Source of the DNA: Elusimicrobiota bacterium
GTDB lineage: Bacteria > Elusimicrobiota > Elusimicrobia > Elusimicrobiales > UBA9959
Reading direction: 5' to 3'
Length of the DNA: 64,000 bases
NCBI GenBank assembly: GCA_009773155.1
Contig: WOVA01000016.1
Location: 25,507 to 89,506 of the forward strand
The position numbers and the translations under genes are program-made. Shown piece after piece: positions 24,142 to 42,402 of this stretch (the first letter of the stretch is position 1; each line of letters starts with the position of its first letter). Under the pieces are notes generated by a model. That model did no database searches and was not told where the DNA came from. It saw nothing but the letters and a program-made list of their open reading frames with translations.

Positions 24142-24146
<5 letters not shown>

Positions 24147-24202
24147 ATTTTTTTCTACAAAATATTGTAGAATAAAATCTACAATGTGGAATAAAGTCTA
24201 CA
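24142..24202 (+). promoter_or_regulatory. Putative enhancer (UAS): three TGTAGA-N6-TCTACA palindromes
   Basis: TGTAGA 24142 / TCTACA 24154 / TGTAGA 24166 / TCTACA 24178 lie on a 12-bp lattice, plus TGTGGA 24185 / TCTACA 24197. The array sits about 80-140 bp upstream of the sigma-54 promoter and starts at the activator stop codon. Confidence 0.6.
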
Positions 24203-24249
24203 CTCACCCTTGTAACAAGTTTTTCACAGTCCCAACAGGAAGCGAAAAT

Positions 24250-24277
24250 ATCCCGTCCGTCAGGCGGGATTTTTTAT
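24250..24277 (+). terminator. Rho-independent terminator after the activator gene
   Basis: The hairpin tcccgtcc-gtca-ggcggga is followed by TTTTTT. Confidence 0.65.
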
Positions 24278-24278
24278 T

Positions 24279-24293
24279 TGGCAACTTTGTTGC
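24279..24293 (+). promoter_or_regulatory. Sigma-54 (-24/-12) promoter
   Basis: TGGCAACTTTGTTGC fits TGGCAC-N5-TTGC with GG and GC correctly spaced. It lies about 75 nt upstream of ATG 24369, which has a GGAGG RBS. Confidence 0.75.
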
Positions 24294-24368
24294 TACTACT
24301 TTTTTCGGGGAACATCGATTTTTCGGTCATCGCTTGACTGGTTTTAATAGTTAGTGGAGGAATAGCTT

Positions 24369-25787
24369 ATGAAACGGATCATTAATCTCCTGACGGCCGC
24401 GGCCCTCTCTTCGCTCCTGTCCCTGCCCGCCTACGCCGCCCCGCTGCTGATAAACTACCAGGGCCGGCTGATAGACACCGCCGGGAACCCGCTGATCGTA
24501 ACAAACCAGCCCATAACTTTCAGGATCTACGACGCTCTTACGGGCGGCAATCTCCAATGGACCGAGAACCAGAGCATAACTCCGGACAACGGCATCTTCA
24601 ATGTCTCGCTCGGAAGCGTCAGCTCTCTCCCCGCCCCGGTCTTTTCCTCCGACGACCGGTACCTCGAGGTCCAGATCGGCGCCGACTCCCCGCTTTCGCC
24701 GCGCACCCGGCTACTCTCCGTTCCCTACGCCGTTTACGCCGCCAATATAGGATCTCCTTCCAGTTCCATCAATGTTTCCACTCATATGGTCCTTTCCGGC
24801 GGCCAGCTCCGCTTCGGTAATTTTGCCTCCGCTCCCTCGGTCGCCGTCGGCGCCGGCGCGATGTATTATAACACCACCAATAACCAGCTCTATTACCACA
24901 ACGGCACGGCCTGGACAGCCCTGGCGGCCGGCGGCATCAGCCCGCTGACCGACAACGGTGACGGCACCGTTACCCTAAACGTGCCTGCCAACAGGGTCGG
25001 CCTTGGAAAAGCGCCCGCCGAAAAGTTGGACGTGGCCGGTAATATCAAGGCCGATTACGGCCTTATATCCGCGACCGCCGCGGTCAGCGGCGCGGTCTAT
25101 GTGGGCTCCGGCGCGAACATCAGCACGATAACGCCGACGGGATTCTTCGGCAGCGGCGCGGGGCTGCTTAACGTGCCGGTGGGCGACAATACGGTGACGT
25201 CGGCCAAGATAGTGGACGACAGCATAATGAACGCCGACATCAACGCGTCGGCCGCGATAGCCAAGAGCAAGCTGGCGGCTTTGAATATAGTGAACGCGGA
25301 CGTGGACGCGGCGGCCGCGATAGCCCCGTCGAAGATAGCGGGCACGGCGGCCATACTGGGCGCGAATACGTTTACCGGCGCGCAGACGTACGCCGCCGGT
25401 TCGTCGCTGGCGGCGGCGGCCGCACAGCCTGGCGTGGCGGTGTCGACGGCGGTCTTCATCGGCACGGGCGCGAACATCAGCACGATAACGCCGACGGGAT
25501 TCTTCGGCAATACAATACACGCTTCCAGCGCCACGCTGACGGGTGACGCGGAAGTCCGCGGCTTGATTAAGGCCGGCTCCACCCCGGCGGCCATAACCGA
25601 TGTCTCCGGCAATGTCTTGGCCTCCAAACTGATCGGGGCAATACCACAAGCTGTCACTGTGTTCGTCTCCGCTGATTGTGAGGCTTTAACCCCAGGGACT
25701 GTGGCACAGTTCTGCTATAACAGCACTTCGTTTATTCTTAATGTTTCGACTAGCACGAATCTCGGAGGCTTTGCTCCGTTGCATTAG
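24369..25787 (+). CDS. Secreted fibre/adhesin-like repeat protein (uncharacterised)
   Basis: Signal peptide MKRIINLLTAAALSSLLSLPAYA. The protein is Ala/Gly/Ser/Thr/Asn-rich with no TM. It has the motifs INYQGRL and MYYNTTNNQLYYHNGTAWTAL and the internal repeat G.GANISTITPTGFFG. Confidence 0.7.
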   Translation: MKRIINLLTAAALSSLLSLPAYAAPLLINYQGRLIDTAGNPLIVTNQPITFRIYDALTGGNLQWTENQSITPDNGIFNVSLGSVSSLPAPVFSSDDRYLEVQIGADSPLSPRTRLLSVPYAVYAANIGSPSSSINVSTHMVLSGGQLRFGNFASAPSVAVGAGAMYYNTTNNQLYYHNGTAWTALAAGGISPLTDNGDGTVTLNVPANRVGLGKAPAEKLDVAGNIKADYGLISATAAVSGAVYVGSGANISTITPTGFFGSGAGLLNVPVGDNTVTSAKIVDDSIMNADINASAAIAKSKLAALNIVNADVDAAAAIAPSKIAGTAAILGANTFTGAQTYAAGSSLAAAAAQPGVAVSTAVFIGTGANISTITPTGFFGNTIHASSATLTGDAEVRGLIKAGSTPAAITDVSGNVLASKLIGAIPQAVTVFVSADCEALTPGTVAQFCYNSTSFILNVSTSTNLGGFAPLH

Positions 25788-25819
25788 TGATAGACCTAAG
25801 CATCCCTCGCCGGCTAATT

Positions 25820-28003
25820 ATGGGCTACAAAAAAGGCGGCATGATACTATTGACTTTCCTTGTCGGCGGCTTGTTCGCCGTCCAGGGGGTTTCTTTTGCC
25901 GCTAACACCCTGGAGACGCGGGCGGTCACGGGCGGGCTGGGGATCTCGTCGGGCACGGCGAAGATACTTGAGTCGGTGATAGGCGAGCTCTCCGGGCCGG
26001 CGCCGACGGGGTCCGTGCGCAAGGTCCTCTCGGGTCACGCCCGGACCAGCCACAGCCCGGGCGCGCTCTACGACATCGCGGTGACCACGCAGCCGGTGGA
26101 CGAAGGGCAGGTGCGGATAACCTTCACCACGCCCGGCCGCGCCGGCTTCCGCGGGCAGCTTTCCTTCGTGGAAGTCAAGATAGCCACCTACGCCATCACC
26201 GCGGCTAATTACGAGGCGATAACTTCGTCGCTGACGCTGACGGCGCTGAGCACCGGCACGGCGGGTCTGACCACTTATTATCACCTGGTCCCCGGGCCGA
26301 CCTATTACGCCGCCGGGCGCGCCCGCGACGCGGCGGGCATGAAGAGCCGCCTCTCGCCGACGCCGACGTTCCTGACCTCGGCCATAGCGCCGGCCCCGGT
26401 CACCTCCATTACTATCGTCAACTCAACCTACGGCGCCGTTAATATCACCTGGAACGTGACCGGCGACGACGGTTTGATCGGCGACCTGACCACCGGCTAT
26501 TTCCGCATAGCTTATTCCAGCGTGCCGGCGGAAGCGGCCCTTTTCAGTTCCGCCAATTACACCACCCAGCTTTCCACCAGCGCGCTGGCCGGCTCCACCC
26601 AGTATCACCGGCTCTCCGGCCTGCAGGGTAATGTGACCTATTACGCCGCCGTCTTCATCGGCGACGAGGTGACCGTCTACGGCGGACTCGGGACCATCGC
26701 GCAGGTTGTCACGATGGCTTATCCGCCGATCCAGTCCGGCTTCTCAAATCTTTCCAGCGACGGGTTCACGGTCAGTTATACGGCCAACAACTACCCCGGC
26801 GCGCAGTACTATATCCAGACGTCCAGCGACCCCGCTTTCTCCTATGCCACGAATTCCGGCTGGATCACGACAAGCTCGGCGTCCTTCTCCGGGCTCAACA
26901 CCAACCAGACTTACTATGTGCGCGGCAAGGCGCGCAATTCGCAACTGGTGGAAACCCAGTATGCGGACCTCGGCAGCGTCTCGCTGACACTCAACGTTTC
27001 AAAGCCCAAGCCGCCGCCCCTGAAGGGGGAGGCCTCCGGCTCCACCATAATCCTTTCCTGGGACCAGGTGGTCTACAACATAGCCGGCGGCACTACCACC
27101 ATAGCCGCGTACGACATCTACTACAGCACCGGGGTCAACGGGGCGGAGAATTTCATCGAGGCCGTCTCCAGCTCGGTGTTCACCAGGACTTACACGCCTC
27201 CCGCGGCGCGCTGGTACTATGTGAAGGCGCGCGACCAGTACAGCCTGCGCAGCGATCCGTCCATATGGGTGAAGAGTACGCTCGACGTGGCGCGCGTGGT
27301 GGCCGCCGACCTCCGCGCCGTGGCGGATATGCCGCCGGACGCGGGCTACCAACTCGCCGCCTCCGGCCTTACGCTGCGGATATCCCACCAGAGCCAGTAC
27401 GAGACCGGGCTTGTGCAGGCCTCGTATAAGGTCTCGCTGCTCGACAATAACGGCAACGAGCGCGTGGGCCTGGACCTGCCGTCCGCGGCCGTCGTGACTA
27501 TGCCCACCACCCGGACCGGCGCCGTGACCATAACCGGCTACTCGCCGTCGATCTCCTATTCCGTCTACGATTACGCCGTCTTCTACTACAACGGCGTGGA
27601 GGACGTGAACATCGGCGGCGCGGTGGACCCGAACTCCGGCACCGTCAGCGTCTCCACAAAGAAGACGGGCGTCTTCAAGGTAAAGCAGGTTATAAGGCCT
27701 TCCTCCTTCAGGATAACCCAGACCGTGCCGCGCAAGATCTTCACGCCCAACGGCGACGGGATCTGGGACGAGTTCAACATCGTCTACGACAACCCGGAGG
27801 GGCTCTCCATCTCCGACGCCAAGGTTTATGACCTCTCCGGGGCCGAAGTGGCGTCGCTGCGCGCCGGCACCTATAATACCAGCGCCTCGCTGTCGTGGGA
27901 CGGCCGGCGGAAGGGCGGCGACAAGGCGGCGGCCGGCATCTATGTCTACCAGTTTAAGGCCGGGTCAAAGTACCATAACGGCACGATGGTGCTGGCGCGG
28001 TGA
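25820..28003 (+). CDS. Large secreted FN3/Ig-like repeat protein with T9SS-type-B-like (gliding-motility C-terminal) domain
   Basis: Signal/TM segment MILLTFLVGGLFAVQGVSFA and repeated beta-rich modules (..YY.RGKARN.., WYYVKARD). The C-terminal IFTPNGDGIWDEFNIVY...GIYVYQFKAG resembles the PNGDG.ND C-terminal sorting domain. Start ATG 25820 is preferred over GTG 25787. Confidence 0.75.
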   Translation: MGYKKGGMILLTFLVGGLFAVQGVSFAANTLETRAVTGGLGISSGTAKILESVIGELSGPAPTGSVRKVLSGHARTSHSPGALYDIAVTTQPVDEGQVRITFTTPGRAGFRGQLSFVEVKIATYAITAANYEAITSSLTLTALSTGTAGLTTYYHLVPGPTYYAAGRARDAAGMKSRLSPTPTFLTSAIAPAPVTSITIVNSTYGAVNITWNVTGDDGLIGDLTTGYFRIAYSSVPAEAALFSSANYTTQLSTSALAGSTQYHRLSGLQGNVTYYAAVFIGDEVTVYGGLGTIAQVVTMAYPPIQSGFSNLSSDGFTVSYTANNYPGAQYYIQTSSDPAFSYATNSGWITTSSASFSGLNTNQTYYVRGKARNSQLVETQYADLGSVSLTLNVSKPKPPPLKGEASGSTIILSWDQVVYNIAGGTTTIAAYDIYYSTGVNGAENFIEAVSSSVFTRTYTPPAARWYYVKARDQYSLRSDPSIWVKSTLDVARVVAADLRAVADMPPDAGYQLAASGLTLRISHQSQYETGLVQASYKVSLLDNNGNERVGLDLPSAAVVTMPTTRTGAVTITGYSPSISYSVYDYAVFYYNGVEDVNIGGAVDPNSGTVSVSTKKTGVFKVKQVIRPSSFRITQTVPRKIFTPNGDGIWDEFNIVYDNPEGLSISDAKVYDLSGAEVASLRAGTYNTSASLSWDGRRKGGDKAAAGIYVYQFKAGSKYHNGTMVLAR

Positions 28004-29109
28004 GCGGAGATATTATGGAAAGGGACGAAAATAAAGTTTCTCTCCTCGCGGCCGCGGCGGCGCTGCTCTTTCTCTCCGCCGCCTCAGCGCGCGCCTCGTT
28101 CACCGATTCGGGTTACGCGGCCCGCCAGGCCGCGATGGGCCAGGCTTTCACCGCCATCGCCGACGACTCCGGCTCGGTGCCCGCCAATCCAGCGGGGCTC
28201 GTGAATCTCTCCGGTCCCGAGCTCACCGCCGTCTACGGCAAGCTCTACCAGGGCCTCTCCGACAATTCCGACATCGGCCGCGGCTATTTCGGCTTCGCTT
28301 CTCCGGTGAAGCGCTGGCTGCCCGGCGCCGCGGCTTTCAGCTGGGACGAGACCCGCCTGACGGAAGCCTACGCCGAAACCTCCTTCTCGGTCTCCTACGC
28401 CACCCGCGCCTGGCGCGGCCTGGCGACCGGCCTGACGCTCAAATACCTGCGCAAGGGCTACGAATCCGATTCTTACACGGCGGTTGACCCGCTTTTCAGC
28501 GGCGGCTACTCCAAGGCCGCCCTGGGCGTAGACCTCGGCGCGCATTACCGGCTCTCGCCGAAATATACGTTCGGCCTGCTGCTGCGCAATATCAACCGCC
28601 CCGACCTGGGCATAGGCGGGAAGGACGCGCTGCCGGCGCAGGGCAGGCTCGGCGCGGCCTACTGGCTGCGCAACGGCGTGGTCAGCCTGGACGCCGGCTT
28701 CGGCGAGGATTTCGAGCTGGCCCTGGGCGCCGAATACGTCCTTCACCACAAGTACCCGCTGCGCCTGGGGCTCAACGTAAACGACGACGCGCGCCGCAAC
28801 GTGAGCTTCGGCCTCGGCGCCAGGATGGCCTCTTTCGGCCTCGATTATTCCTTCACCCTGCCGATAGGCGGCGTGCAGGACATCTCGGGCTCGCACCTGC
28901 TGGCTTTCTCCATGCGCTTCGGCCGGGCCGACGCCGGCTTCTACGCGGCGCAGGCCGATCCCGCCGCCGCGGCCCAGCTGCGGGACGCGCTCGCGGCCCT
29001 CAAGGCCGCCGAGCAGCGCGAGCGCGATCGCGAGCGGGAGATCCTGGACCTGGAGCGCCGGCTGCTGGAGAAGCAGCGCGCTGTCGGCGGGCCGGCGCCC
29101 TCCCGATGA
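28000..29109 (+). CDS. Outer-membrane beta-barrel protein (PorV/PorQ- or PorP/SprF-like), C-terminal coiled coil truncated by a frame change
   Basis: Signal peptide LLFLSAASARA. The motif AAMGQAFTAIADDSGSVPANPAGL resembles that family. Alternating beta-strand pattern ending ...GSHLLAFSMRF, then a coiled coil (EQRERDREREILDLERRLLEKQ), with the stop at 29107-29109. Confidence 0.7.
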   Translation: MSGDIMERDENKVSLLAAAAALLFLSAASARASFTDSGYAARQAAMGQAFTAIADDSGSVPANPAGLVNLSGPELTAVYGKLYQGLSDNSDIGRGYFGFASPVKRWLPGAAAFSWDETRLTEAYAETSFSVSYATRAWRGLATGLTLKYLRKGYESDSYTAVDPLFSGGYSKAALGVDLGAHYRLSPKYTFGLLLRNINRPDLGIGGKDALPAQGRLGAAYWLRNGVVSLDAGFGEDFELALGAEYVLHHKYPLRLGLNVNDDARRNVSFGLGARMASFGLDYSFTLPIGGVQDISGSHLLAFSMRFGRADAGFYAAQADPAAAAQLRDALAALKAAEQRERDREREILDLERRLLEKQRAVGGPAPSR

Positions 29110-29485
29110 ACCCAAAGTTATTATCCCGTCGACCGAAGTCCCCGGCGAATCCATACGCGCGCTCGAGGAGACCCTGAACGCGCTCAAGGGCGAACTGGAG
29201 AAGGCCAGGCTCGAGAGCGAATCCTTCAAGACCCGCGTCAGCGGCCTCGAGGAGCGGCTTAAGACCGCGCCCAGGCCCTCGGCGCCTGCCGTCAGGCCCG
29301 CGGCCCCGGCCCCCGCGCCGGCGGCCAGGCGTTCCTACGAGGCGCAGAAAGGCGATACGCTGCAGAGCGTCGCCGAGAAAGTCTACGGCGACGCCTCGCG
29401 CTGGCCGGAGATCTACAGGGCCAACGCCGCGTCGCTCGGCCGCGGCGGAGAAGTGAAGCCCGGCCAGGTCCTGGTCATCCCCTGA
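29108..29485 (+). CDS. Coiled-coil + LysM domain reading frame without a start codon (probable frameshifted 3-prime part of the preceding gene)
   Basis: The +1 frame is open from 28868 to TGA 29483-29485 and encodes ...IRALEETLNALKGELEKARLESESFKTRVSGLEERL...YEAQKGDTLQSVAEKVYGDASRWPEIYRANAASLGRGGEVKPGQVLVIP (LysM). No in-frame ATG, GTG or TTG occurs before the domain. Confidence 0.6.
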   Translation, partial: EPKVIIPSTEVPGESIRALEETLNALKGELEKARLESESFKTRVSGLEERLKTAPRPSAPAVRPAAPAPAPAARRSYEAQKGDTLQSVAEKVYGDASRWPEIYRANAASLGRGGEVKPGQVLVIP

Positions 29486-29619
29486 CCGGGACCGAGGCCG
29501 GCGCTTTATCAGGGATTTCCCTTTTTAGTAACATTTGCGAAACACGCCGGGTGTAAATTATAGGCGCCGGTACTCCGCCCCGCCGGCGGCAAGGACGGGG
29601 CAGGTGCGGAAGAAAGCAA

Positions 29620-29642: not shown

Positions 29643-29681
29643 CCACCCGGCGGAACGATGTTTTTTTTACGGACTTTAACT

Positions 29682-32600
29682 ATGAACGACAAATGGGACG
29701 AATCTTCGCTTAACGAGCAGGCGATAACCGACCTGGAGACGGCCAAGCTCGCGCTGCGCTGGGCGCTGGACAAGCTCCGCGCCAACCAGGAAGAGTCGCT
29801 CAAATCCCGCCAGACGCTGCAGGAGAAAGCCTCGCAGGTCTCCTTCCTCGAGAACCAGGTCAAGGCCAAGAACGCCGAGATGGAGCGGCAGCAGCGCGCG
29901 CAGGAGGAGGAGATCAAGTCCCGCCAGGAGAGCCTGGAGTACCAGTTCAGGTCCCGCCTGGAGCGCCTGACCGAGCGCGAGAAGGAACTCGAGGATAACG
30001 CCGCGAAGCTGGAGGGCTCCTTCAAGGCCCGCGAGCAGAAGCTCACCGACGACTTCCAGAAAAAATCCGAGGAACTGCGCGGCCGCTGGGGCCAGGTGGA
30101 GGCCGAGATCTGGCAGCTGCGCCAGGAGCAGCTGGCCAAGCAGCAGGAGTTCGAGAAGCTTTACGCCGAGCGCCTCTCGGCCGAGCAGAAGCGCGCCCGG
30201 GAAGAGTCGGAGAACTCCCGCGCGGAGATGGAGAGAAATTACGGGTCCCGCGTGCAGGAGCTGGAGAAGCGCGAGCACACGCTGGGCGAGGAGCTCAAGA
30301 AACAGGAAGCGGTGATGAAGTGGGCCCGCGACAGCTGGCAGAAGGACGCCGACGAGCGGGAGAAGAAGCTCAAGGTCCGCGAGCTGGAGATAGAGAAGAA
30401 ACTGCTCGAGAAAGAGCAGGAGATAGACGATTACAAGGTCAAACTGGGCCTGCTCAACAAACAGCTGACCGACCTGCCCGAGGCCGTGCGCAAGCGCGAC
30501 GAGGAACTGGAGCGCTACCGCGGCGCGCTGGACAGCCTGGAAGGCGTGATCAGGACCCTGGAAGGGGAGAAGAGAGCCCTCGCCCAGGATTCCGATTCCA
30601 GGCAGTCCCGCCTGGCCGAGGCGCTCGAGGCCGAGAAGGCCCGTTTCAAGGACCTCGAGAACGAGATCCCCAGGCGCCTCAAGATAGCCATAGAGCACGA
30701 GCGCGCCCGGCTGCAGGAGAAGGTCTCCGAGGTGGAGAAGAACTTCGGCCTGGACCTGCGCAAGAAGCAGGAAGAGGCGGACTACCTCGAGCGCAATCTC
30801 AAAACTTTCGAGGAGACCATAAAGACCCTGCAGGCCGAGCGCGAAGGGTTCGCGCAGAAGACCGAGCAGCTGCAGACCCAGCTCAATATCCGCTCCGAGG
30901 AGACCTCCTTCCGCGAGCGGCAGCTGCAGTCGGAGTACGAGGTCCGCCTCAGGGTGGAGCTCGAGAAGCAGAGCCGCGGCCTGCGCTCGGAGATAGAGAC
31001 CGCGCAGCGCATCTACGAGGACAATCTGCGCCTCAAGATCGAGGAGATCGCCCACCTGCGCAAGGAGATGGAGACCCTGGCCGGCGAGAAGTCCGACCTG
31101 TCCTCCTCCTCCTCCGAGCTGCGCCGCCAGGTGGAGGCCCAGAAGGATAAGTACGAGCGCGACCTGGCCTCGACCAGGGCCGCCCTCAAGGAGAGCCACG
31201 ACGCCGAGCTGGGCCGCCGCATGGAGGAGGAAACGGCGAAGCACGAGCAGGCCCGCGCGGCGCTGCAGAAGGATTTTTCCGCCCAGCTGGAGGGCCTCAA
31301 CCTTATAGTCGCCGAGCGCGAGGCGGAGCTCAACCGGTTCAAGAACGAGGTCCAGCGGATGTCCGCCGAAAAGGCCGAGGCTATTGCGCGGGAGAAGGAC
31401 AAGGCGCGCCAGGACCTGGAGCTGCAGGCGAAGGCGTTCGCCGAGACCGAGAAGATATACCAGGAGAAGCTGCAGCAGTCCGCGCGCAATATCGAGGCCG
31501 TCCGCGTCGAGAAGGAAGAGACCATACTGCGCGAGAAGGACCGCCTCGAGCGTATCTACGCCGAGCGCGAGAAGGATTACGAGGATCAGCTGGCCCGCAG
31601 GGACCAGGAGGTCGTGCGGCTGCGCGAGGACCTGCTAAAGTCGGCCCATGAGCGGGAGACGGTTCTTCGCGAGGTTTCGGCGGAGCGCGACGCGCTGCGC
31701 CAGAAGCTCAGGGAAGCGCATGACGCCGCCGCCCGTGCGGAAGCGCTCAAAGAACTGGAACTGGAGCGCGCCCGCCAGGCCGAGAAGGACAAGTCGGCCG
31801 ACATCCTCGACAAGCGCGACAAGGAGCTGGCCGCGCTGGCAAGGACCAAGGACGAGCAGGACGCCGCCTACCGCCGCTCGCTGGAGGATTTCCGGGCCAG
31901 GCTCTCCGAAGCCGTGGGCAAGATGGAAGAGCTTAAGGCCGTGGCCGAGGAACGCCAGACCCGCGTCTCCGCGCTGCAGGTGGAGATCTCCGAGGCCAGG
32001 CGCCAGCATAACGACGAGCATATGGCGGTGTCCGGCCGGCTGGCCGACAGGGAAAAGCAGCTCAAGTCCCTGCGGATGGACTATGATTCGCTCAAGGCCA
32101 ATTCGGCGGCCGTCACCCAGGAGTCGCAGAAGCAGATTGGCGAGGCGCTGATGCGTCTCAAGGCCGCCGAAGAGCACCGCGGCGCTTCCGAGAAGGCTCT
32201 TTCCGAAAGCCGGCGCGAGATAGATATGCGCAGGGTAGAGCTTTCCAAGAAAGAGGACGAACTGCTAAAGCTGCACTCCGACCTGGAGAGCTCGCGCAAC
32301 TCCGCAGCCCGGACAGTGGAGGAATCGCGCGGCCGCGAAACTTCCCTCAAGAGCCGGCTGGAGGTGCTCGAGTCCGAGCTGGCCGGCCGCTCTTCGCTGG
32401 CGTCGGACCTTACCGCCGAGCTGAAAGCGCGCAACGCCGAGCTTTCAAAGGCGGGGGAAGAGAAGTCCCGCCTGGAGCAGGAGCTCAACGTCAGGCTCTC
32501 GGAATTCAAGCAGCAGCTTGAGTCGGAGCGCAAGGAGTTCCGCCTGTCCTACGAGCGGCTCAACCGCGAATTCGCCGACCGGGAAAAGGCCCTGATCGGG

Positions 32601-33413
32601 GAGGTCAACGCCCTCAGAGGCCAGTTGACTTCCGGCGAGTCACTGGCCCAGGACCTGAAGTCCCGGCTCGAGAGCGCGGAGGCGGCCGGGCCCGGGATGA
32701 AGGCGCGCATAGACGAACTGCAGAAGAAGATCAGGAACATGGAAGAGGCGTCCTCGGGCCTCGCCGAGAGCCTGCTGGCGGCCAAAGAGAGCGCCTCCGC
32801 CGCCGCGGCCCGGATAGAGAAGCTCTCCGCCCAACTGGAGGACGAGAAGAAGCGCCGCTCCTCGCTCGAAGCCGCCAACGAGACGCTCTCCTCGGAACTG
32901 CGCAGGAAACTCGAGGAGTTTTCGGCGGCCTCCTCGTCCGTCAAGGACCTTTCCGGCCGCCTGGCCCGGGCGCAGGAACTATGTGAGACGGAAAAGCGAA
33001 AGCGGGAGGAGACGGAAGTCTATTCCCAGACCTCCGCTTCCGCCCTCCAGGAGAAGGAAGTGGAACTGTCCGACCTGAAGTTCTCCATGAAGGAGCTGTC
33101 TTCCAGGGTCAATAAACTCCAGTCCCTCTACGAGGCCGAGAAGCTCAAGCGCGAGGAGACCGAGGTTTATTCCCAGACCTCGGCCAGCGCCCTGCGCGAG
33201 AAGGAAGACGAGCTCAAGGGCCTCGGGAAGCGCTGCGCGCGGCTGGAATCCGAACTCAACGCCTCCAGGAAAGAGGCGGGTTCCGCGTCGGTCGAGGCGG
33301 CCAGGCTGGCCGGCGAGATCGAGGAGCTCCGGCGCGTCAAGGAAGAGTACGAAAAGAGCCGCAGGCTGGCGGAAAAGCTCAAAGATAAGCTCAAGCTATG
33401 GAAGAAGGAATGA
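29682..33413 (+). CDS. Giant coiled-coil-rich protein (about 1240 aa), no enzymatic domain recognised
   Basis: Almost entirely E/K/R/Q/L/A heptad-like sequence with no TM or signal peptide. Start set at MNDKWDES (29682; ATG 29658 is also possible). The ORF-track TTG 29535 start would read through a palindrome repeat. A C-terminal duplicated block EK.KREETEVYSQTSASAL.EKE.EL is present. Confidence 0.8.
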   Translation: MNDKWDESSLNEQAITDLETAKLALRWALDKLRANQEESLKSRQTLQEKASQVSFLENQVKAKNAEMERQQRAQEEEIKSRQESLEYQFRSRLERLTEREKELEDNAAKLEGSFKAREQKLTDDFQKKSEELRGRWGQVEAEIWQLRQEQLAKQQEFEKLYAERLSAEQKRAREESENSRAEMERNYGSRVQELEKREHTLGEELKKQEAVMKWARDSWQKDADEREKKLKVRELEIEKKLLEKEQEIDDYKVKLGLLNKQLTDLPEAVRKRDEELERYRGALDSLEGVIRTLEGEKRALAQDSDSRQSRLAEALEAEKARFKDLENEIPRRLKIAIEHERARLQEKVSEVEKNFGLDLRKKQEEADYLERNLKTFEETIKTLQAEREGFAQKTEQLQTQLNIRSEETSFRERQLQSEYEVRLRVELEKQSRGLRSEIETAQRIYEDNLRLKIEEIAHLRKEMETLAGEKSDLSSSSSELRRQVEAQKDKYERDLASTRAALKESHDAELGRRMEEETAKHEQARAALQKDFSAQLEGLNLIVAEREAELNRFKNEVQRMSAEKAEAIAREKDKARQDLELQAKAFAETEKIYQEKLQQSARNIEAVRVEKEETILREKDRLERIYAEREKDYEDQLARRDQEVVRLREDLLKSAHERETVLREVSAERDALRQKLREAHDAAARAEALKELELERARQAEKDKSADILDKRDKELAALARTKDEQDAAYRRSLEDFRARLSEAVGKMEELKAVAEERQTRVSALQVEISEARRQHNDEHMAVSGRLADREKQLKSLRMDYDSLKANSAAVTQESQKQIGEALMRLKAAEEHRGASEKALSESRREIDMRRVELSKKEDELLKLHSDLESSRNSAARTVEESRGRETSLKSRLEVLESELAGRSSLASDLTAELKARNAELSKAGEEKSRLEQELNVRLSEFKQQLESERKEFRLSYERLNREFADREKALIGEVNALRGQLTSGESLAQDLKSRLESAEAAGPGMKARIDELQKKIRNMEEASSGLAESLLAAKESASAAAARIEKLSAQLEDEKKRRSSLEAANETLSSELRRKLEEFSAASSSVKDLSGRLARAQELCETEKRKREETEVYSQTSASALQEKEVELSDLKFSMKELSSRVNKLQSLYEAEKLKREETEVYSQTSASALREKEDELKGLGKRCARLESELNASRKEAGSASVEAARLAGEIEELRRVKEEYEKSRRLAEKLKDKLKLWKKE

Positions 33414-36049
33414 CCTCCTCCTCCGGACTGGAAGGCCTGGACGCCGAAATAGACCGCCTCCTGGAGGAAGTGCAATCCAAGGAGAAAGTTTATTCCGCGC
33501 GCGTAGCGCTGCTTGAAGGCGAGCTCAAGCGCCGCGACGGGGAGGTGCACACCCTCTCGGCCAGGCTGGCCGAGTCCGAGAAGACGTGGTTCGCGCGGGA
33601 GCGCGAGCTCAAGGAGAAAGGCCGCTCGCTGAAGGAGGTCCTTGCCGAGCGCGACGCGGCCGCCGCCGACCTTACCCTCAAGGCGGAGGAACTGACGAAG
33701 AAGATCGCCTCCCTCGAAAAGAGCCTGGAGAAGGAACTCACCGCCAACAGGGAGAAGGAAGTCTACATACAGAGCGCCAAGTCGGCGGTAAAGGGGCGCG
33801 ACGCCGAGGTGGAGAAGACCTGGCGTATGCTGGAGGAGGCCCGCTCCGAGATAGCCTCCTGGAAGGCGCAGACCTCCGAGCGCGACTCGCGCCTGGAGGC
33901 CGCCGCCGCCGGGAACCAGGCCCTCGCGCTGGAGATACAGAAGCTCAACAATTCGCTGCAGCAGGCGGCGCAGGGGTTCCGGCACAAGCTGGACATGGTA
34001 AGGAAGGAAGCCGAGTCCGCCGTGCTGGAGAAGTCCTCCGCGCTGGTCCGCGTCAGCGCGGCCGAGGAGGCCATGAATGAGCGGGCCGCCTCCATGGAGA
34101 AGCTGGCCGTCAGGGCCAGGCAGCTGGAAGAGACCCTCGCCGTGCGCGAATCCCGGCTGGCCGAGCTGGAGGACAGGCTTAAATTTTTCGAAACGGTCCC
34201 GCAGTCGGCGGAGAAGGCTTCCGCCGAGACCGCGGCGCTGCGCCGCAAGGAGCGTCTGGTCTCCGAACTGACGTCACGGGTGGCCTCGCTGGAGAAGGAC
34301 CTGACTTCCGTGGAGGAGGACCGGGCGCGGCTGGCCGAGCGCATGCACGTCTCCGAGGCGGAACTGCGCGCCGCCCGCGAGGAGCTGGCCGGCTCGACCG
34401 CCAGGTTAAGGGCGCTGGAGTCGGAGCGCGACTCGTTCAAGAAACTTTCGGCGGAGGCCCAGGAGATGGCCGCCGCCATCTCGGAGAAGTCCGGGCGCGA
34501 GGATACCGAGAAACTCTCTAAAATAGGCGAGAGCCTGCGCCAGGAGCACGTCCGCTACAGTCAGGCGCTCTCGCGGGCCGAGGAACTCGCCACCCGCTAC
34601 GCCGCGCTCGAGGCCGATCACGAGGCGCTGAAAAAACGCCACGACGATTCCGTGGCGGAGAAGGCGGTGGAGATAGAGAAGCTGCGCTCCGACCTGGCCC
34701 AGGCCGAAGCGGAAGGCGCCAGGCGCCTGTCCGAACTGGCCGAGACCGACCGCCGCCGCTACCACGAGCTCGCGGGCGAGATGCAGCAGCTCAGCTCCCG
34801 CCTCGCGGAGAAGGAGATGGAGCTGGAGGCCGCCCGCTCCGGCCACGAGGCCATAAAGGCCGAATGCGCCCGCCTGCGCGAGCACGAGCGCGAACTGCAT
34901 AAGAATTACGAGCGCCAGCTCAAGGACGACAACCGCCAGCTGGAGGAGGCCCGCGCGGCCGCCGCCAGGCTGGAGGGGGAAATGCACGCCATCCATTCCC
35001 GGGAGTCCGCCCTGAAGGCGGAGGCCGCGGCGCTGAAAGCCGAGATAGAGGTCTCCAAAAAAGAGAAGAACACGGCCGCTTCTTCCGGCAAAAAGCTCAG
35101 GGAGCTGGAGTCACGGCTGGAGGAAAAGAACGACGAACTGTCCGAGGCGCGCAAGAGCCTCTCCAAGATCTCGACGGAGAAGGCGCGCTGGCACGAGCGG
35201 GAGCGCAAGCTGGCGGAGGACGGCCGCGGCGGCAAGGCCAAAGCCGAACTGGCCGACGCCGAGCGCCGCCTGGCCGCCAAGGAGCAGGAACTGTCCGGGG
35301 TCTCCGACAGGCTGGAGGCCGCCGCCGCCGAGATCTCCGGCCTGCGCGCCGCGAGGGAGAGCTTCAGGAGCAGGCCCGCCCCGGGCGCCTCGACGGACCT
35401 GCAGGAGCTGGTCGCCGGCATCGCGCACCAGATCTCCAATTCCGTCAGCATAATACGCAGCCACGCCGAGTACTGCCTGGAGGCGCCTAAAGAGTCAGAT
35501 CTCAAAGAGCCGCTGGGCGCGATAGTGCGCAGCATAGTCACCCTGCAGAAGCGCATCGAGGAAATAGCCGACTTCTCCAGGCCCGTTCTGCTGCAGCGCA
35601 AGACCGTCGGGCTCGGCGACATAGCCAGGGAGGCCCTGGCCTTCGCCGCCAACGCGCAGGGGCAGGTCCCTTTCCAGTCCAGGGTCTCCGCCCCTAAAGA
35701 CCTTCCTCCGCTGCGCGTGGACCAGGTCCGCCTGCAGGAGGCCCTGGAGCATGTCCTGACCAACGCCGCCGAGTCGCTCGGCAAGGACGGGCGGATAGTG
35801 GTGGACATACGCCGTTCGTCGGGCGGCCAGGTCATAAAAGTGTCCGACACGGGACAGGGAGTAGAACCCAAGAACCTGCCGGCGGTCTTCGAACCTTTCT
35901 TTTCCACCAGGCCAGGCAAGCTGGGTCTGGGGCTGGCGATAGCCAAGAATATCATCAAGTCGCACGGCGGAGAGATCAAGCTCTCCAGCGAGTTCGGCCG
36001 CGGAACGCAGGCCGAGATCTTCCTCCCGGACGCTCCGGAAGAGGACTAA
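33398..36049 (+). CDS. Histidine kinase with about 620-aa N-terminal coiled coil
   Basis: Overlaps the previous gene (ATGA at 33410-33413). Long coiled coil, then H-box LVAGIAHQISNSVSII and an HATPase (LTNAAESL, SDTGQGV, GKLGLGLAIAKNII.HGG). No TM segment seen. Confidence 0.85.
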   Translation: MEEGMTSSSGLEGLDAEIDRLLEEVQSKEKVYSARVALLEGELKRRDGEVHTLSARLAESEKTWFARERELKEKGRSLKEVLAERDAAAADLTLKAEELTKKIASLEKSLEKELTANREKEVYIQSAKSAVKGRDAEVEKTWRMLEEARSEIASWKAQTSERDSRLEAAAAGNQALALEIQKLNNSLQQAAQGFRHKLDMVRKEAESAVLEKSSALVRVSAAEEAMNERAASMEKLAVRARQLEETLAVRESRLAELEDRLKFFETVPQSAEKASAETAALRRKERLVSELTSRVASLEKDLTSVEEDRARLAERMHVSEAELRAAREELAGSTARLRALESERDSFKKLSAEAQEMAAAISEKSGREDTEKLSKIGESLRQEHVRYSQALSRAEELATRYAALEADHEALKKRHDDSVAEKAVEIEKLRSDLAQAEAEGARRLSELAETDRRRYHELAGEMQQLSSRLAEKEMELEAARSGHEAIKAECARLREHERELHKNYERQLKDDNRQLEEARAAAARLEGEMHAIHSRESALKAEAAALKAEIEVSKKEKNTAASSGKKLRELESRLEEKNDELSEARKSLSKISTEKARWHERERKLAEDGRGGKAKAELADAERRLAAKEQELSGVSDRLEAAAAEISGLRAARESFRSRPAPGASTDLQELVAGIAHQISNSVSIIRSHAEYCLEAPKESDLKEPLGAIVRSIVTLQKRIEEIADFSRPVLLQRKTVGLGDIAREALAFAANAQGQVPFQSRVSAPKDLPPLRVDQVRLQEALEHVLTNAAESLGKDGRIVVDIRRSSGGQVIKVSDTGQGVEPKNLPAVFEPFFSTRPGKLGLGLAIAKNIIKSHGGEIKLSSEFGRGTQAEIFLPDAPEED

Positions 36050-36063: not shown

Positions 36064-37236
36064 ATGGCCAAGATACTGATCGTCGACGACGAACCAGACA
36101 TGAGGCTGGCGATAAAGAACGTCCTGCGCCTGAGGGGGCACGAAGTCTCCGAGGCCCAGGACGGTCCGTCCGCGCTGGCCGCGCTGGAGGGCGAGAAGCC
36201 CGACCTGGTCCTGCTCGACATCAGGCTGCCCGGCATGGACGGCATAGAGCTGCTGGAGCGCATACGCAAGATGAGCCGCTCCCTGCCGGTGGTGATGATA
36301 ACCGGGTACGGCCACATACAGTCGGCCGTCGACGTGATGAAGCTCGGAGCCAACGAGTACCTGCAGAAACCTTTCGAGAACTCGCAGCTGGTGGATACTG
36401 TGAAGCGCTTCACTTCCGGGCGCAAGCCCGCGCCGGCGGCCGCCGCAGGGGACATCCCGCCTCATGATGGCGGGGACGCCATGCCGCAGGGCGTCGCCAA
36501 ACCTCTCTTTACCCCGGCCAGGCTGCTGGCCCTGGCCGCCGCCGCCGCCGCCCTGCTTCTTTTTTTCCGCTGGTCCGACGGCCGGCGCAATTACGCCGCG
36601 GCTTACGAGTCGGCCGGGGCCAACGTGTCATCCCTGGTCTGGCGCGGCGGGGACCTCTGGGTCTCCGACTGGCTGGAGCAGAGCCTCTACCGCTACGCGC
36701 CGCGCGGCGGCAAGCTCGCCCTTGCCGAGAAAGTCGCGCTGCCGGGCACCCATATCACCGGCTTCGCCTTCGGCGACGACGCCCTCTACATCTGCGATTC
36801 CTGGGCCGGCGTGGTGCAGGAACGTACGCTGGAGAAGGGGTTCCCGGTGGCCAGGAACCACGACCTGCCGGGCAAGATAACCTCGCTTTTCTTTGACGGC
36901 AAATATCTCTGGACCTGCGATTCGGAGGGCGTGGTCTCGCGCCGGAGGACCGGGGAAGACCTGCCGGTGGAGGCGGAGTTCCGGCTGGCGCATAAGCCCG
37001 ACCAGATCTATAAGGACTCCGGCGCCTTCTGGTCGGTGGTCTCCTCGAGCGGCAGGCTCTACCGCCACCGGCTCGACGACAAACTTTCGGTGGAGGCGGT
37101 CTTTACGGCCGGCGACCCCGGCGCCGACAGGCCCCTGTCGGCCTTTACCTGGAGCAAGGGCAGGCTCTGGCTGGCCAGGGAGGGCGGCAAGAGCATAGGG
37201 GAGTACGGCCCCGGGATATTGAAAGAAACCGACTGA
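36064..37236 (+). CDS. Response-regulator receiver fused to a TM helix and a C-terminal beta-propeller-like repeat domain
   Basis: REC (KILIVDDEPDMR...DLVLLDIRLPGMDG...KLGANEYLQKPF), TM LLALAAAAAALLLFF, then five repeats of the type [LF].W..G.LW..D (SLVWRGGDLWVSDW, ALYICDSW, YLWTCDSEG, AFWSVVSSSG, RLWLAREGG). Confidence 0.85.
   Translation: MAKILIVDDEPDMRLAIKNVLRLRGHEVSEAQDGPSALAALEGEKPDLVLLDIRLPGMDGIELLERIRKMSRSLPVVMITGYGHIQSAVDVMKLGANEYLQKPFENSQLVDTVKRFTSGRKPAPAAAAGDIPPHDGGDAMPQGVAKPLFTPARLLALAAAAAALLLFFRWSDGRRNYAAAYESAGANVSSLVWRGGDLWVSDWLEQSLYRYAPRGGKLALAEKVALPGTHITGFAFGDDALYICDSWAGVVQERTLEKGFPVARNHDLPGKITSLFFDGKYLWTCDSEGVVSRRRTGEDLPVEAEFRLAHKPDQIYKDSGAFWSVVSSSGRLYRHRLDDKLSVEAVFTAGDPGADRPLSAFTWSKGRLWLAREGGKSIGEYGPGILKETD
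36472..36498. repeat. Degenerate GGGGAC-family palindrome inside the response-regulator linker
   Basis: ggggacgccatgccgcagggcgtcgcc (arms gacgcc/ggcgtc) encodes GDAMPQGVA between the REC domain and the TM. Confidence 0.5.
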
Positions 37237-37255: not shown

Positions 37256-37293
37256 AAAACCCCACCCCCGCCATATGGCGGGGATGGGTTTTT
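37256..37293. terminator. Bidirectional rho-independent terminator ending the locus (convergent with the pilin-like gene)
   Basis: aaaaccccacccccgcc-atat-ggcggggatgggttttt. Confidence 0.78.
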
Positions 37294-37308: not shown

Positions 37309-37734
37309 TTAGTTTATCAGGTCTCTGCCGCAATTCGCGGGGCAGGTCGGAGTCGCGCTCGCGTAGGGGTAGGTGATCACATAGTTGCCGTAAGTCGCGG
37401 GAGCGGCCCCTACCCTGGTGGCGGTCGCTCCCGTGGCGGTAAGAGCTAAACTGTATATTTTCTGGACGCATGCGCTTGTGCCCGTGCATTCCGCTCCGCC
37501 GGCGGTCTTGAAGGTAACGTCCAGCTCGTCCCAGTTGGTACTGAAGACCGACTTCCTTGCGTAATACCGCTCCTGCGCGGCTTTGATAGCGGCGAAAGCG
37601 GACAGCGCTTCGGATACCCTGGCGCGCTCCACCACCTTGAAGTACTGCGGTATGGCCATGGAGGCCAGGATACCGATGATCAGCACGACGACGAGAAGCT
37701 CGATAAGAGTGAAGCCCTTGCGTATTTTTTGCAT
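37309..37734 (-). CDS. Type IV pilin-like / pseudopilin protein (prepilin N-terminal cleavage-methylation domain)
   Basis: MQKIRKGFTLIELLVVVLIIGILASMAIPQY is a class-III signal peptide with G/F cleavage and Glu+5. Confidence 0.88.
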   Translation of the reverse strand: MQKIRKGFTLIELLVVVLIIGILASMAIPQYFKVVERARVSEALSAFAAIKAAQERYYARKSVFSTNWDELDVTFKTAGGAECTGTSACVQKIYSLALTATGATATRVGAAPATYGNYVITYPYASATPTCPANCGRDLIN

Positions 37735-38089: not shown

Positions 38090-38899
38090 ATGTCGCATAA
38101 CATGACGACGAACAGGCGGTACAGGGTCAAGGTCCGGTTCAAGGTGCGCAAGCGCGGCCTCGGCCTGGCCGGCGCCGTAGCGCTGGCGGTATTCCTGTCC
38201 GTCTCCGCCGTCTACGGCGTCAGGATAGCGTGGGACTGGGTCTCGCCCCGTTTCAGCCGGGGCCTGGTCAAGTTCAAACTGGAGCGCGCGGTGGTGGAGG
38301 TGCCGGCCAAAAGCGTGGAGACCTGGATAGCGTCCCACCTGTCGTCCCGGCGGGGGGAAGAGTGGACCTCCGCCGACCGCGACCGCTTTCTGGAGAGAGT
38401 GGAGAAGCGCTACCCCTACCTCAGCGAGCCGAAGCTCTCCCGCAACTTTCTGACCGGCTCGCTGCGCTTCCGCGCCGGCGTGGAGACCGTCGTCGCCCCC
38501 GTGACGCGCGCCGGAGCCTCCTGCTATCTGGGCGAGAGCGGCCGCCTCTTCCCGGAGATATACCCCGAGGCCGTCCCCGGCGGCATCAGCGCCGCGCTGC
38601 CGGCCTCGCCCGACGCCTTCCCGGACGCCGCGCGCTTCCTGTCCCGCCTCAACGCCCTTTCGGGCCTTTTCGACAGCCGCCCCGTTTCCCTGTCCTGCCC
38701 CTCGGCGGAGGGCCCCTGCAAACTGGCCCTCTCCGACGGCAGCGAGGTGCTCTGGGGCGGGTTTGAATTCACGCGCGCAAAAATATTAAGATTGAACGAG
38801 ATTTTGGAGAGATCGGCTGCCAGGCTCAAGGGTCCCTATAAGGTGGACCTGCGTTATTTCGAAGACGGCAGGGCCGTGGTTTCGGCGTCAGCCCGATAA
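38090..38899 (+). CDS. ftsQ: Cell division protein FtsQ-like
   Basis: Basic N-terminus, a single TM (LGLAGAVALAVFLSVSAVYGV), and a periplasmic POTRA-like region. Lies immediately upstream of ftsA-ftsZ. Confidence 0.7.
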   Translation: MSHNMTTNRRYRVKVRFKVRKRGLGLAGAVALAVFLSVSAVYGVRIAWDWVSPRFSRGLVKFKLERAVVEVPAKSVETWIASHLSSRRGEEWTSADRDRFLERVEKRYPYLSEPKLSRNFLTGSLRFRAGVETVVAPVTRAGASCYLGESGRLFPEIYPEAVPGGISAALPASPDAFPDAARFLSRLNALSGLFDSRPVSLSCPSAEGPCKLALSDGSEVLWGGFEFTRAKILRLNEILERSAARLKGPYKVDLRYFEDGRAVVSASAR

Positions 38900-41313: not shown

Positions 41314-42402
41314 ATGGCCATAGACCTGAAACTGCTGCTGAAAGTGATGGTCCAGAACAAGGCGTCGGACACGCATATCCGCGCCGACTCCCCGGTCTTC
41401 CTGCGCATCAACGGCGTGATGACGCCCGTGAACGGCTCCAGTATGACGGCCGCGGAAGTGGAGGCTATGATAAAGCCCCTCTTCAACGACCGCCATAAGC
41501 GTATCTTCGAGCAGATGAACGAGGTGGACTTCTCCCAGGACGGCGGCGACCTCGGCCGCTTCCGCTTCAACGCTTTCATGCAGAAGGGCAGGATGTGCGT
41601 GGCCATACGCCATATCCCGCGCGCCATCCCCACGTTCGAGGAACTCAAGATGCCCGTGGAGTCCATCAGGAAGCTGCTGCAGAACGAGCGCGGCCTCATT
41701 CTGGTGACCGGCATCACCGGCTCGGGCAAGACCTCCACGCTGGCCGCGATGATAGAGCATCTCAACAGCGAGTGGGAAGGGCATATCCTGACCATCGAGG
41801 ACCCGGTGGAGTTCGTCTTCACCGAGAAGAAGTGCATCATCAGCCAGCGCGAGATAGGCGCCGACACCACCGATTTCGTGCAGGCGCTGCGGGCCGCGAT
41901 GCGCCAGGACCCGGACATCATCCTGGTCGGCGAAATGCGCGACCTGGAGACGACGCAGGCGGCCATCACCGCGGCCGAGACCGGCCACCTGGTCCTCGCC
42001 ACGCTGCATACGGTCAACGCCGTGCAGACCCTCTCACGCATAATCGATCTGTTCCCGCCGCATCAGCAGGCCCAGGTGCGCATGCAGCTTTCCGAGACGC
42101 TCAAGGGTATAGTCTCGCAGCGTCTGATCTCCAGCACCAAAGGCGGCCGCATCCCGGCCGCCGAGGTCATGGTGGTCACGCCGCACGTCAAGAAGATGAT
42201 CGCCGACAACAACCTGGACCAGATCAACCAGGCCATAGCCAAGGGCGGCTTCTACGGCATGCAGAGCTTCAACCAGTCGCTGGTCAGGATGCACAAGGAG
42301 GGGCTGGCCAGGCTGGAGGATATAGTCCAGGCCGCCACCAATCCCGACGACGTGCTGCTGGCCGTCAAGGGCATCGAGCAGGATATAGACGGCAAGAAGT
42401 AA
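41314..42402 (+). CDS. pilT: Type IV pilus retraction ATPase PilT
   Basis: ASDTHI motif, Walker A GITGSGKTST, Asp/His boxes, and PilT-type AIRAAMRQDPDIILVGEMRD. Confidence 0.93.
   Translation: MAIDLKLLLKVMVQNKASDTHIRADSPVFLRINGVMTPVNGSSMTAAEVEAMIKPLFNDRHKRIFEQMNEVDFSQDGGDLGRFRFNAFMQKGRMCVAIRHIPRAIPTFEELKMPVESIRKLLQNERGLILVTGITGSGKTSTLAAMIEHLNSEWEGHILTIEDPVEFVFTEKKCIISQREIGADTTDFVQALRAAMRQDPDIILVGEMRDLETTQAAITAAETGHLVLATLHTVNAVQTLSRIIDLFPPHQQAQVRMQLSETLKGIVSQRLISSTKGGRIPAAEVMVVTPHVKKMIADNNLDQINQAIAKGGFYGMQSFNQSLVRMHKEGLARLEDIVQAATNPDDVLLAVKGIEQDIDGKK

Follow-up and report, generated by a model that had tools for sequence, protein, structure and literature searches.

Two-component systems usually pair a ligand-sensing kinase with a cytoplasmic, mostly DNA-binding response regulator. 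Crescentin, FilP and Scy are bacterial coiled-coil-rich cytoskeletal proteins, with 51-residue repeats in Scy and FilP, and in Myxococcus xanthus FrzS and AglZ carry a receiver domain together with a long coiled coil that is used for localisation. In Caulobacter crescentus the coiled-coil-rich scaffold PodJ recruits the histidine kinase PleC and sets its activity, such that signalling follows the site of scaffold assembly (PMC8980812), whilst in Streptomyces the histidine-kinase-like protein PsmA is found on the DivIVA polarisome, a coiled-coil cytoskeletal assembly, to which it attaches via an N-terminal dimerising region (PMC12963549). Here we describe a locus of an Elusimicrobiota bacterium in which two overlapping genes encode a giant coiled-coil protein (CC1) and a coiled-coil histidine kinase (CC-HK), followed by the gene for a response regulator. 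It lies in a 64,000-nucleotide (nt) stretch of contig WOVA01000016.1 (assembly GCA_009773155.1), hereafter the window, whose numbering is used unless another assembly is named; the window also matches contig WPII01000013.1 of GCA_009773265.1, a metagenome-assembled genome of Elusimicrobia. The feature is real, conserved and lineage-specific, and we give an even chance to the reading that CC1 and CC-HK together constitute a split giant coiled-coil histidine kinase specific to Elusimicrobiota. Literature searches on Elusimicrobia coiled-coil proteins, coil-only kinases and membrane-anchored response regulators returned nothing directly relevant; as far as these searches show, coil-only kinases of such a kind, and regulators in which a receiver (REC) domain is joined through a transmembrane (TM) helix to a periplasmic domain, have no description in the searchable literature. 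The genes in question are as follows (aa, amino acids; ORF, open reading frame):

29682-33413, + strand: CC1, cytoplasmic coiled-coil rod protein of 1243 aa (ORF and translation)
33398-33413, + strand: 16-nt overlap of CC1 and CC-HK, ATGGAAGAAGGAATGA
33398-36049, + strand: CC-HK, 883 aa, a coiled-coil rod and then a histidine kinase core
36064-37236, + strand: response regulator gene, 390 aa, Pfam REC 118 bits

A previous reading of this DNA, made without database searches (the sequence-only reading), had described two overlapping plus-strand genes for giant coiled coils, the second ending in a kinase core, and a REC protein at 36064; both ORFs and the REC domain were confirmed. It was found that several relatives encode the same parts as a single polypeptide, with about 1400-1500 aa of coil in the giant forms. 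One locus (L062) encodes a 1776-aa protein made up of the CC1 head motif (37% identity to CC1 over 73 aa, E 2e-6), ~1540 aa of coil, a DHp domain with a His-Gln (H-Q) box and a CA domain (HATPase_c 70 bits); its gene overlaps the regulator gene by 1 nt, and genes for a LysM protein and a beta-barrel porin come next. A 1657-aa equivalent in L063 has CHU_C proteins and a LysM protein before it. A shorter version of 625 aa (P0307) lies upstream of a regulator that is 38% identical to that of the window over its full length. In P0283, a region corresponding to CC1 aa 1-466 (35% identity, E 4e-67) is joined to a CA domain 42% identical to that of CC-HK. The head motif, DESSLNEQAI.DLETAKLALRWALDKLR, is found at aa 6-32 of CC1 and also forms the N-terminus of the unsplit giant kinases. 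At the other end of the size range are an Endomicrobiales relative with a short coil and an H-R box, and a rod-less H-Q kinase of 219 aa that consists of DHp and CA only (L064; GCA_021730935.1, 6979-9008). The gene for the latter overlaps that of an upstream polytopic membrane protein with a spermine-synthase-like domain, which may be an alternative input partner.

The two ends that face each other across the CC1/CC-HK junction are also related. The N-terminal ~150 residues of CC-HK are homologous to the last ~125 of CC1 (hhalign 91.8%, E 7e-7, vs 20.5%, 1.1% and 0.5% for control segment pairs; BLASTP of the CC-HK N-terminus against the CC1 C-terminus, E 3e-4), and this part of CC-HK is paralogous to the repeat and tail region at the C-terminus of CC1. 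Because relatives encode the same parts as one polypeptide and the ends of CC-HK and CC1 are paralogous, the window pair is best read as a giant coiled-coil kinase split by fission or, with equal right, as two proteins that tolerate fusion. The fused relatives thus provide Rosetta-stone evidence for physical and functional coupling of CC1 and CC-HK, and the coupling that had been proposed from the gene overlap is borne out by the conservation of that overlap, by natural fusions and by the paralogous, putatively docking ends. On these alignments CC1 would not be an independent filament sensed by the kinase, since in sister lineages it corresponds to the distal part of the kinase's own rod.

The overlap follows the pattern ATGGAAGAnnnnnTRA, with the kinase ATG 16 nt before the end of CC1, in all 23 of the 23 species-level loci examined. 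The TG of this ATG comes from a Trp codon in the CC1 tail (..LWKKE* in the window and ..LWKxx* in the family), kinases from overlapping loci begin MEE or MED, and the WK tail is missing from most CC1 genes that have no downstream kinase. An ATGA overlap had been suggested for the window; the ATGA at 33410-33413 is real but corresponds to a secondary Met, the conserved start being the ATG at 33398. Programmed -1 frameshifting over the overlap was also considered; there is no slippery heptamer, and the window has its kinase frame closed immediately 5' of the ATG. The CC1 start at 29682 is M50 of a longer ORF and agrees with the N-termini of all orthologues. The regulator gene, which is preceded by a GAGGA Shine-Dalgarno sequence, begins 14 nt past the kinase stop, and CC1, CC-HK and the regulator are predicted to form one operon. 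This unit and a convergent pilin gene are both ended by a bidirectional terminator:

37261-37288, both strands: intrinsic terminator, 12-pair stem with 10 G-C pairs, T-runs on either strand

A sigma-70 promoter scan 5' of CC1 gave no site. The AT skew is strongly positive (0.25-0.36) over 30-36 kb. Antisense ORFs over 29.5-36 kb, among them the minus-strand 29676-31244, reach 522 aa and are rich in Leu; they were dismissed as compositional mirrors of the Glu-rich, GAG/CTC-rich coding strand, and homology support is entirely on the plus strand.

The part of CC-HK that precedes its enzymatic core consists of two elements:

33398-35362, + strand: coiled-coil input region, aa 1-655 (BLASTP, hhalign, segment identities)
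35354-35398, + strand: Gly/Pro-rich linker (..SFRSRPAPGASTD..) joining the rod to the DHp helix

No PAS, GAF, HAMP or TM segment was found in CC-HK by Pfam or hydropathy, as the sequence-only reading had stated, and its further point, that the coiled coil is the sole input module of the kinase, can be extended to a family trait: a TM segment or sensor domain was found in none of 27 distinct orthologues. The rod is ordered into a conserved head (aa 1-50), degenerate 49-aa units (~aa 50-140), a hypervariable spacer and, nearest the core, a conserved coil, and identities among orthologues follow this order, with 58% for the head, 27-34% for the middle, 60% for the last ~100 coil residues and 72% for the core. 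Kinase length in the family ranges from 442 to 1574 aa and rod length from ~220 to ~1350 aa, about six-fold. The linker directly before DHp is conserved in every member (RGQSAGAPGYxPDFEELVAGVAHQ). It could be supposed that the coil is itself the sensor, with tension, temperature, ionic strength or the state of filament assembly travelling along the helices to DHp. Signals do pass along long helical linkers in other kinases, CC-HK has no input region but its coil, and the conservation of the final ~100 coil residues before the core would fit such a role; however, the conserved Gly/Pro segment (RGQSAGAPGY / RPAPGAS) breaks the helix ~9-20 residues before the His, the spacer varies from ~220 to ~1350 aa in length and is poorly conserved, the rod is divided over two polypeptides in the window lineage, and the L064 relative has no rod at all. 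We consider this explanation quite unlikely, and the proposal in the sequence-only reading that CC1 is a partner whose filament or mechanical state is sensed by the kinase does not agree with the position of CC1 as the distal rod piece in sister lineages, nor with the Gly/Pro linker and the six-fold range of rod length.

Both CC1 and the N-terminal region of CC-HK are helical rods in which strict heptads are not continuous. Glu, Lys, Arg, Gln, Leu and Ala make up ~67% and Pro 0.2% of the N-terminal regions of both proteins, and neither rod contains a hydrophobic segment (maximum 19-residue Kyte-Doolittle hydropathy, KD19, 0.66 for CC1 and 0.93 for CC-HK). AlphaFold2 (AF2) modelling of CC1 1-520 with 54 homologues gave helices at 18-282, 292-326 and 331-519, separated by short breaks at aa 283-291 and 327-330 (pLDDT 80, pTM 0.23); the model amounts to isolated long helices. 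A hydrophobic periodicity of 3.3-3.9 residues was significant in 69% of windows along the CC-HK N-terminal rod and in 56% of those along CC1, with no significant signal in the CC1 repeat region, so that the helical character described previously stands throughout, but nearly uninterrupted heptads are an overstatement for CC1. Two regions of CC1 can be set apart:

29682-31181, + strand: conserved N-terminal region of CC1, aa 1-500
32814-33254, + strand: three tandem 49-residue (seven-heptad-length) repeats, CC1 aa 1045-1091, 1095-1141 and 1143-1191

Median pairwise identity over aa 1-500 is 75-84% among the compared orthologues, with 34 invariant columns, which is remarkable for a predicted coiled coil, and the C-terminal half is variable. 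The protein is restricted in its distribution: a search of 5.8 billion proteins gave homologues in 73 clusters, from Elusimicrobia only (36-54% identity), and in an exhaustive profile search of 1.84 billion representatives E<=1e-30 was reached by only 18 proteins. No Pfam family matched CC1, and PDB searches with its profile and with the head motif gave nothing meaningful. As a long segmented coiled-coil rod without a catalytic domain, CC1 falls within the definition of coiled-coil-rich, intermediate-filament-like proteins. It is extremely improbable that CC1 and CC-HK are instead SMC/Rad50/MukB-like, M-protein-like or anti-phage (Wadjet/Lamassu) proteins. Profiles for the coiled-coil arms of SMC, Rad50, JetC and LmuB do match weakly, but at 16-52 bits against cut-offs of 300-1087 and over coil segments only (SMC 52 vs 567; Rad50 22.8 vs 1087; JetC and LmuB 16-22 bits in PADLOC). 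Neither a Walker A/B head nor a hinge is present, a signal peptide and a wall anchor are likewise missing, and no PDB profile match falls below E 0.002. The N-terminus of CC1 is acidic, with neither signal peptide nor wall or membrane anchor, and an M-protein-like surface coiled coil was rejected. The known families that had been named in advance as possible matches (Smc/MukB, M-protein-like proteins and chemotaxis scaffolds) therefore do not apply, given sub-threshold matches to coil only, no signal peptide and no chemotaxis domain.

The tandem array closes the variable part of CC1. Its unit has the consensus ..F.EE+KKR.E.ELLAQT..SAL+EK.EE.., and the hidden Markov model matches for copies 1, 2 and 3 are 5e-06, 8e-20 and 4e-22, the first copy (aa 1045-1091) being weaker than the other two. 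The duplicated block that had been noticed at about 32980-33230 is real and, as had been said, mostly synonymous in its divergence, but is more exactly copies 2 and 3 of this repeat. Nucleotide identity between the two (32985-33067 vs 33132-33214) is 77%; the 27 codons comprise 13 without any difference, 10 with a synonymous one and four with a non-synonymous one, and the block is under purifying selection.

The enzymatic core of CC-HK comprises both domains expected of the HisKA class:

35399-35581, + strand: DHp / HisKA, aa 668-728, Pfam HisKA 28.7 bits vs a gathering score of 26.9
35720-36034, + strand: HATPase_c (CA domain), aa 775-879, Pfam 79.7 bits

Over 210 residues the core aligns with ZraS (PDB 9jfj, E 5e-30). 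The phospho-acceptor, His677 (35426-35428), lies in an H-Q-I-S-N box, aligns with the His of ZraS and HK853, and occupies a site that matches AGVAHEIRN of ZraS. The ATP-binding boxes N (LTNA), G1 (DTGQG), F (FEPFF) and G2 (GLGLGL) are all present and are conserved, together with the His and with Asn at H+4. In HisKA kinases an acidic residue directly after the phospho-acceptor acts as catalytic base. The H-E/D-x-x-N/T signature in which it stands is absent from CC-HK, where H+1 is Gln, as it is throughout the family (26 orthologues; Arg in the Endomicrobiales relative); among 59 aligned kinase sequences, H+1 is Glu or Asp in 57 and Gln in two, one of them the kinase of the window itself. The core described previously as canonical is so in that both domains match their Pfam models, but not in its H-box, and the closer alignment of catalytic residues leaves His, Asn and ATP boxes intact but not the acidic H+1. 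With this residue excepted, CC-HK and its regulator qualify, by their predicted domains, as a HisKA two-component pair. Similar observations could be taken to mean that CC-HK is a pseudokinase, or a phosphatase-only structural partner of CC1, in the manner of Streptomyces PsmA. Besides Gln or Arg at a position where related kinases have Glu or Asp, this is favoured by the fused relatives P0283 and P0293, which keep the CA domain without a recognisable H-box; against it, the His, the H+4 Asn and every ATP-binding box are conserved, an intact REC domain with all five catalytic residues is always adjacent, and the 72% identity of the core among orthologues implies selection on an enzyme. We consider this reading unlikely.

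The regulator has an unusual predicted form. AF2 (pLDDT 90.8) gives a REC domain at 1-117, a disordered linker at 122-146, a TM helix at 151-175 (KD19 peaks at 1.95, at aa 148) and an all-beta beta-propeller at 178-388. The REC residues D8, D9, D52, T80 and K102 are present. The propeller resembles five-bladed bacterial glutaminyl cyclases (TM-score 0.71-0.73, at 13-15% identity) and is predicted to be extracytoplasmic, because the REC domain is cytoplasmic and the TM helix lies between the two. The REC-TM-propeller architecture was found in more than 100 homologue clusters, nearly all labelled Elusimicrobia and one Endomicrobiales, and co-oriented kinase-regulator adjacency is conserved in ~30 loci. 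The sequence-only reading overlooked this predicted output, as well as the link to outer-membrane genes described below.

Taken together with the split rod, these features can be arranged into a model that we propose tentatively, as possible and well short of an even chance: that of an envelope-spanning machine in which a coiled-coil 'ruler' of more than 100 nm, single or split, reads a positional or cytoskeletal cue at its distal head and relays it via the membrane-anchored regulator to a periplasmic propeller that controls an outer-membrane, peptidoglycan or surface-protein complex. On the reading of a split giant kinase, to which we give an even chance, coupled translation would give CC1 and the kinase together, and the kinase dimer would then dock by its N-terminal repeat units on the C-terminal repeats of CC1, rebuilding a rod of well over 100 nm. 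Its conserved distal head would bind some cellular partner or assemble into a scaffold. The rod would serve as a tether or scaffold, not as a helical signal wire, and would set the place and local concentration at which the kinase core meets the membrane-anchored regulator; a tether is preferred to mechanical transmission because a flexible Gly/Pro linker precedes DHp and the spacer length varies freely. Phosphorylation of REC at Asp52 might alter the state or partners of the periplasmic propeller, and such inside-out signalling could tune an outer-membrane, peptidoglycan or surface-protein apparatus.

Genes for surface and outer-membrane proteins lie upstream of CC1, and genes for pili and division downstream of the regulator:

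24369-25787, + strand: secreted fibre-like protein, 472 aa, Ala/Gly/Ser/Thr-rich
25787-28003, + strand: CHU_C/type-B-CTD fn3 surface protein (Pfam/NCBIfam)
28000-29109 plus the shifted frame 29102-29486, + strand: PorV/PorQ-like outer-membrane barrel with C-terminal LysM (Pfam/NCBIfam)
37309-37734, - strand: type IV pilin gene, converging on the regulator gene
41314-42402: PilT-family ATPase, 433 bits, directly after ftsZ

The N-terminus of the fibre-like protein has a weak match to the Bdellovibrio 'mosaic adhesive trimer' (MAT) family (40 bits vs a cut-off of 60). The barrel gene scores 86.6 bits against NCBIfam NF033709 (cut-off 90), and its relatives match PorP_SprF weakly. Its ORF stops at 29109, the frame 29102-29486 carries a short coil and LysM, and orthologues have a single protein of 458-489 aa; the break looks like a frameshift, due either to an assembly error or to a pseudogene, and neither frame agrees cleanly with the public gene call (28030-29262 of the window). 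A sigma-54-type match at 24279-24294 (TGGCAACTTTGTTGCT, one mismatch) lies 75 nt upstream of the fibre-like gene and directly after a gene for an NtrC-type REC-AAA+-HTH activator (22773-24146), and a 365-aa protein with a Sigma54_DBD domain is encoded nearby at 20557-21654. The surface-protein operon may be sigma-54 dependent; the consensus scan was not enriched overall (13 found vs 22 expected), and the match at 24279 was the only one well placed. GC content falls to 0.575-0.61 at 24001-26000 and 50001-56000 against a background of ~0.65, the first dip spanning the fibre-like gene.

Synteny was compared over 54 species-level loci. Loci of the kinase type have the order fibre protein, CHU_C, PorV-like LysM barrel, CC1, CC-HK, regulator, pilin (minus strand), FtsQ-like, FtsA, FtsZ and PilT, and in a second group CC1 stands by itself, with tmk/holB on one side and the pilin-fts genes on the other; every Elusimicrobiales locus keeps the pilin-ftsQAZ-pilT order. 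The gene ahead of ftsA and ftsZ, in the place of ftsQ (38090-38899), encodes a bitopic protein of 269 aa that is conserved and has a basic N-terminal tail, one TM helix and a periplasmic domain; it matched no Pfam or NCBIfam model and may be a highly divergent FtsQ. In all Elusimicrobiales loci, kinase present or not, CC1 is found 1-6 kb upstream of the FtsQ-like gene, ftsA and ftsZ, and from this it could be argued that CC1 is a divisome-associated scaffold and that kinase and regulator couple the state of the Z-ring or septum to outer-membrane and peptidoglycan remodelling, functionally like Tol-Pal. The partner genes, which include a LysM peptidoglycan-binding outer-membrane barrel and the periplasmic propeller, would suit this, as would a distant protein of another locus (P0375; L060 8001-10481, GCA_003505215.1), in which an 826-aa single ORF directly upstream of DUF1290 and ftsA combines a CC1-type head motif, ~600 aa of coil and, fused to these, the second half of an FtsQ-type POTRA domain. 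The P0375 region has uniform GC and no other open frame; the protein may be a genuine fusion, or else the product of a deletion or of misassembly, and the latter two possibilities count against its use here. Moreover, the convergent pilin gene and the terminator stand between the CC1-HK-regulator unit and the fts genes, the whole region (psd-pssA-metG-holB-tmk ... cmk-S1-TPR) is syntenic such that the adjacency may be inherited order only, and the kinase-regulator cassette lies away from fts genes in L059, L061, L062, L063 and L064. A relationship to ZapB was rejected (hhalign 0.4% with the ZapB sequence used); weak ZapB Pfam matches are confined to distant short relatives (26.9 bits vs 31.5). 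We therefore regard a dedicated division system as rather doubtful.

The cassette might instead regulate a surface adhesin or fibre apparatus (type-B CTD cargo, a PorP/PorV-like adaptor and possibly type IV pili), analogous to PorY/PorX control of type IX secretion, with the adjacency to fts genes incidental; this we consider possible but clearly less likely than not. In every arrangement seen, the kinase and regulator have CHU_C/type-B CTD proteins and PorV/PorP/SprF-like barrels beside them, a MAT-fibre-like gene lies upstream behind the sigma-54-like promoter and beside the NtrC-type activator, and pilin and PilT genes are close by. On the other hand, the PorV-family score is just under its cut-off, core type IX secretion genes were not seen in the window, the output domain of the regulator is unrelated to PorX, and pilin and PilT are also present at loci without the kinase. 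The process served may be division and the envelope or a surface adhesin or fibre, and the cassettes of distant lineages that lie away from fts genes weaken the case for division.

Returning to the proposed split giant kinase, the association of the parts of its cassette is seen in their distribution. Outer-membrane and LysM/CTD genes adjoin the kinase and regulator in five independent arrangements, distant lineages included, and of 33 well-flanked loci, 20 have the kinase together with the PorV-like gene, 10 have neither, three have the kinase only and none has the PorV-like gene only. Repeat copy number varies from 0 to 7 across CC1 orthologues, and the repeats are almost confined to loci with a kinase (both present 20, both absent 9, mixed 4 and 1; loci with at least 5.5 kb downstream). 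Several points weigh against this reading. These locus counts ignore phylogeny, and the correlation between CC1 length and kinase length is weak (rho 0.32, p 0.11). The extracytoplasmic placement of the propeller is a prediction from a single predicted TM helix. With Gln for the acidic residue at H+1, autophosphorylation of CC-HK may be weak or absent. Finally, ~10 species keep CC1 alone, without kinase, regulator or outer-membrane genes at the locus, and therefore the N-terminal 500 aa, conserved as they are, must serve some purpose apart from the kinase, which the proposed mechanism leaves unexplained.

This Elusimicrobiota clade departs from the usual two-component scheme at both the input of the kinase and the output of the regulator, and few lineage-specific proteins at the ftsQAZ locus of this almost uncultured phylum are as conserved as CC1. 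The only input of the kinase, a rod that reaches ~1500 residues, has been lengthened, shortened, split and removed by evolution whilst both of its ends were kept, and the natural series of split and fused forms predicts a docking interface at the 49-residue repeats. Should the proposed mechanism be correct, an element that serves as scaffold or sets a distance can stand in for a sensor domain, with phosphorylation relayed outward to the envelope; on the envelope-spanning model, both the output mode (REC-TM-periplasmic domain) and the input mode (a length-variable rod) would be ones without description in the literature searched.

In comparison with known systems, the likeness to PodJ-PleC lies in the mode of working, that of a scaffold-regulated kinase, and the sequences are unrelated. 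PodJ acts on the membrane kinase PleC through the PAS sensors of the latter, whereas CC-HK has no sensor domain; unlike PodJ, CC1 is seemingly an evolutionary piece of the kinase itself, and the CC1 and CC-HK genes overlap. The likeness to PsmA is again one of working without homology: PsmA has no H-box His and is a hybrid pseudokinase, whereas CC-HK keeps its His and an adjacent cognate regulator, and the two differ in architecture and phylum. Kinases of the ZraS/AtoS/NtrB type share with CC-HK the DHp-CA core, the His, the N, G1, F and G2 boxes and the H+4 Asn, but have Glu at H+1, a TM/periplasmic sensor and a sigma-54 activator as partner, none of which is found in the CC-HK system. Like crescentin, FilP and Scy, CC1 is a long cytoplasmic rod without an enzyme domain, with short breaks and a region built of repeats (of 49 residues in CC1); it differs from them in having no detectable homology (Pfam Filament 13 bits vs 40) and in its evolutionary fusion to a kinase. 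In FrzS and AglZ the coil is on the receiver side, with no kinase domain, whereas in the window system it is on the kinase side. The PorY/PorX system (reviewed in PMC5445135 and PMC12398890) resembles that of the window in that its regulator does not bind DNA and in its association with CTD cargo and outer-membrane proteins of PorV/PorP type; PorX, however, is a cytoplasmic protein and its output domain is enzyme-like, whereas the predicted output of the window regulator is a beta-propeller beyond a TM helix.

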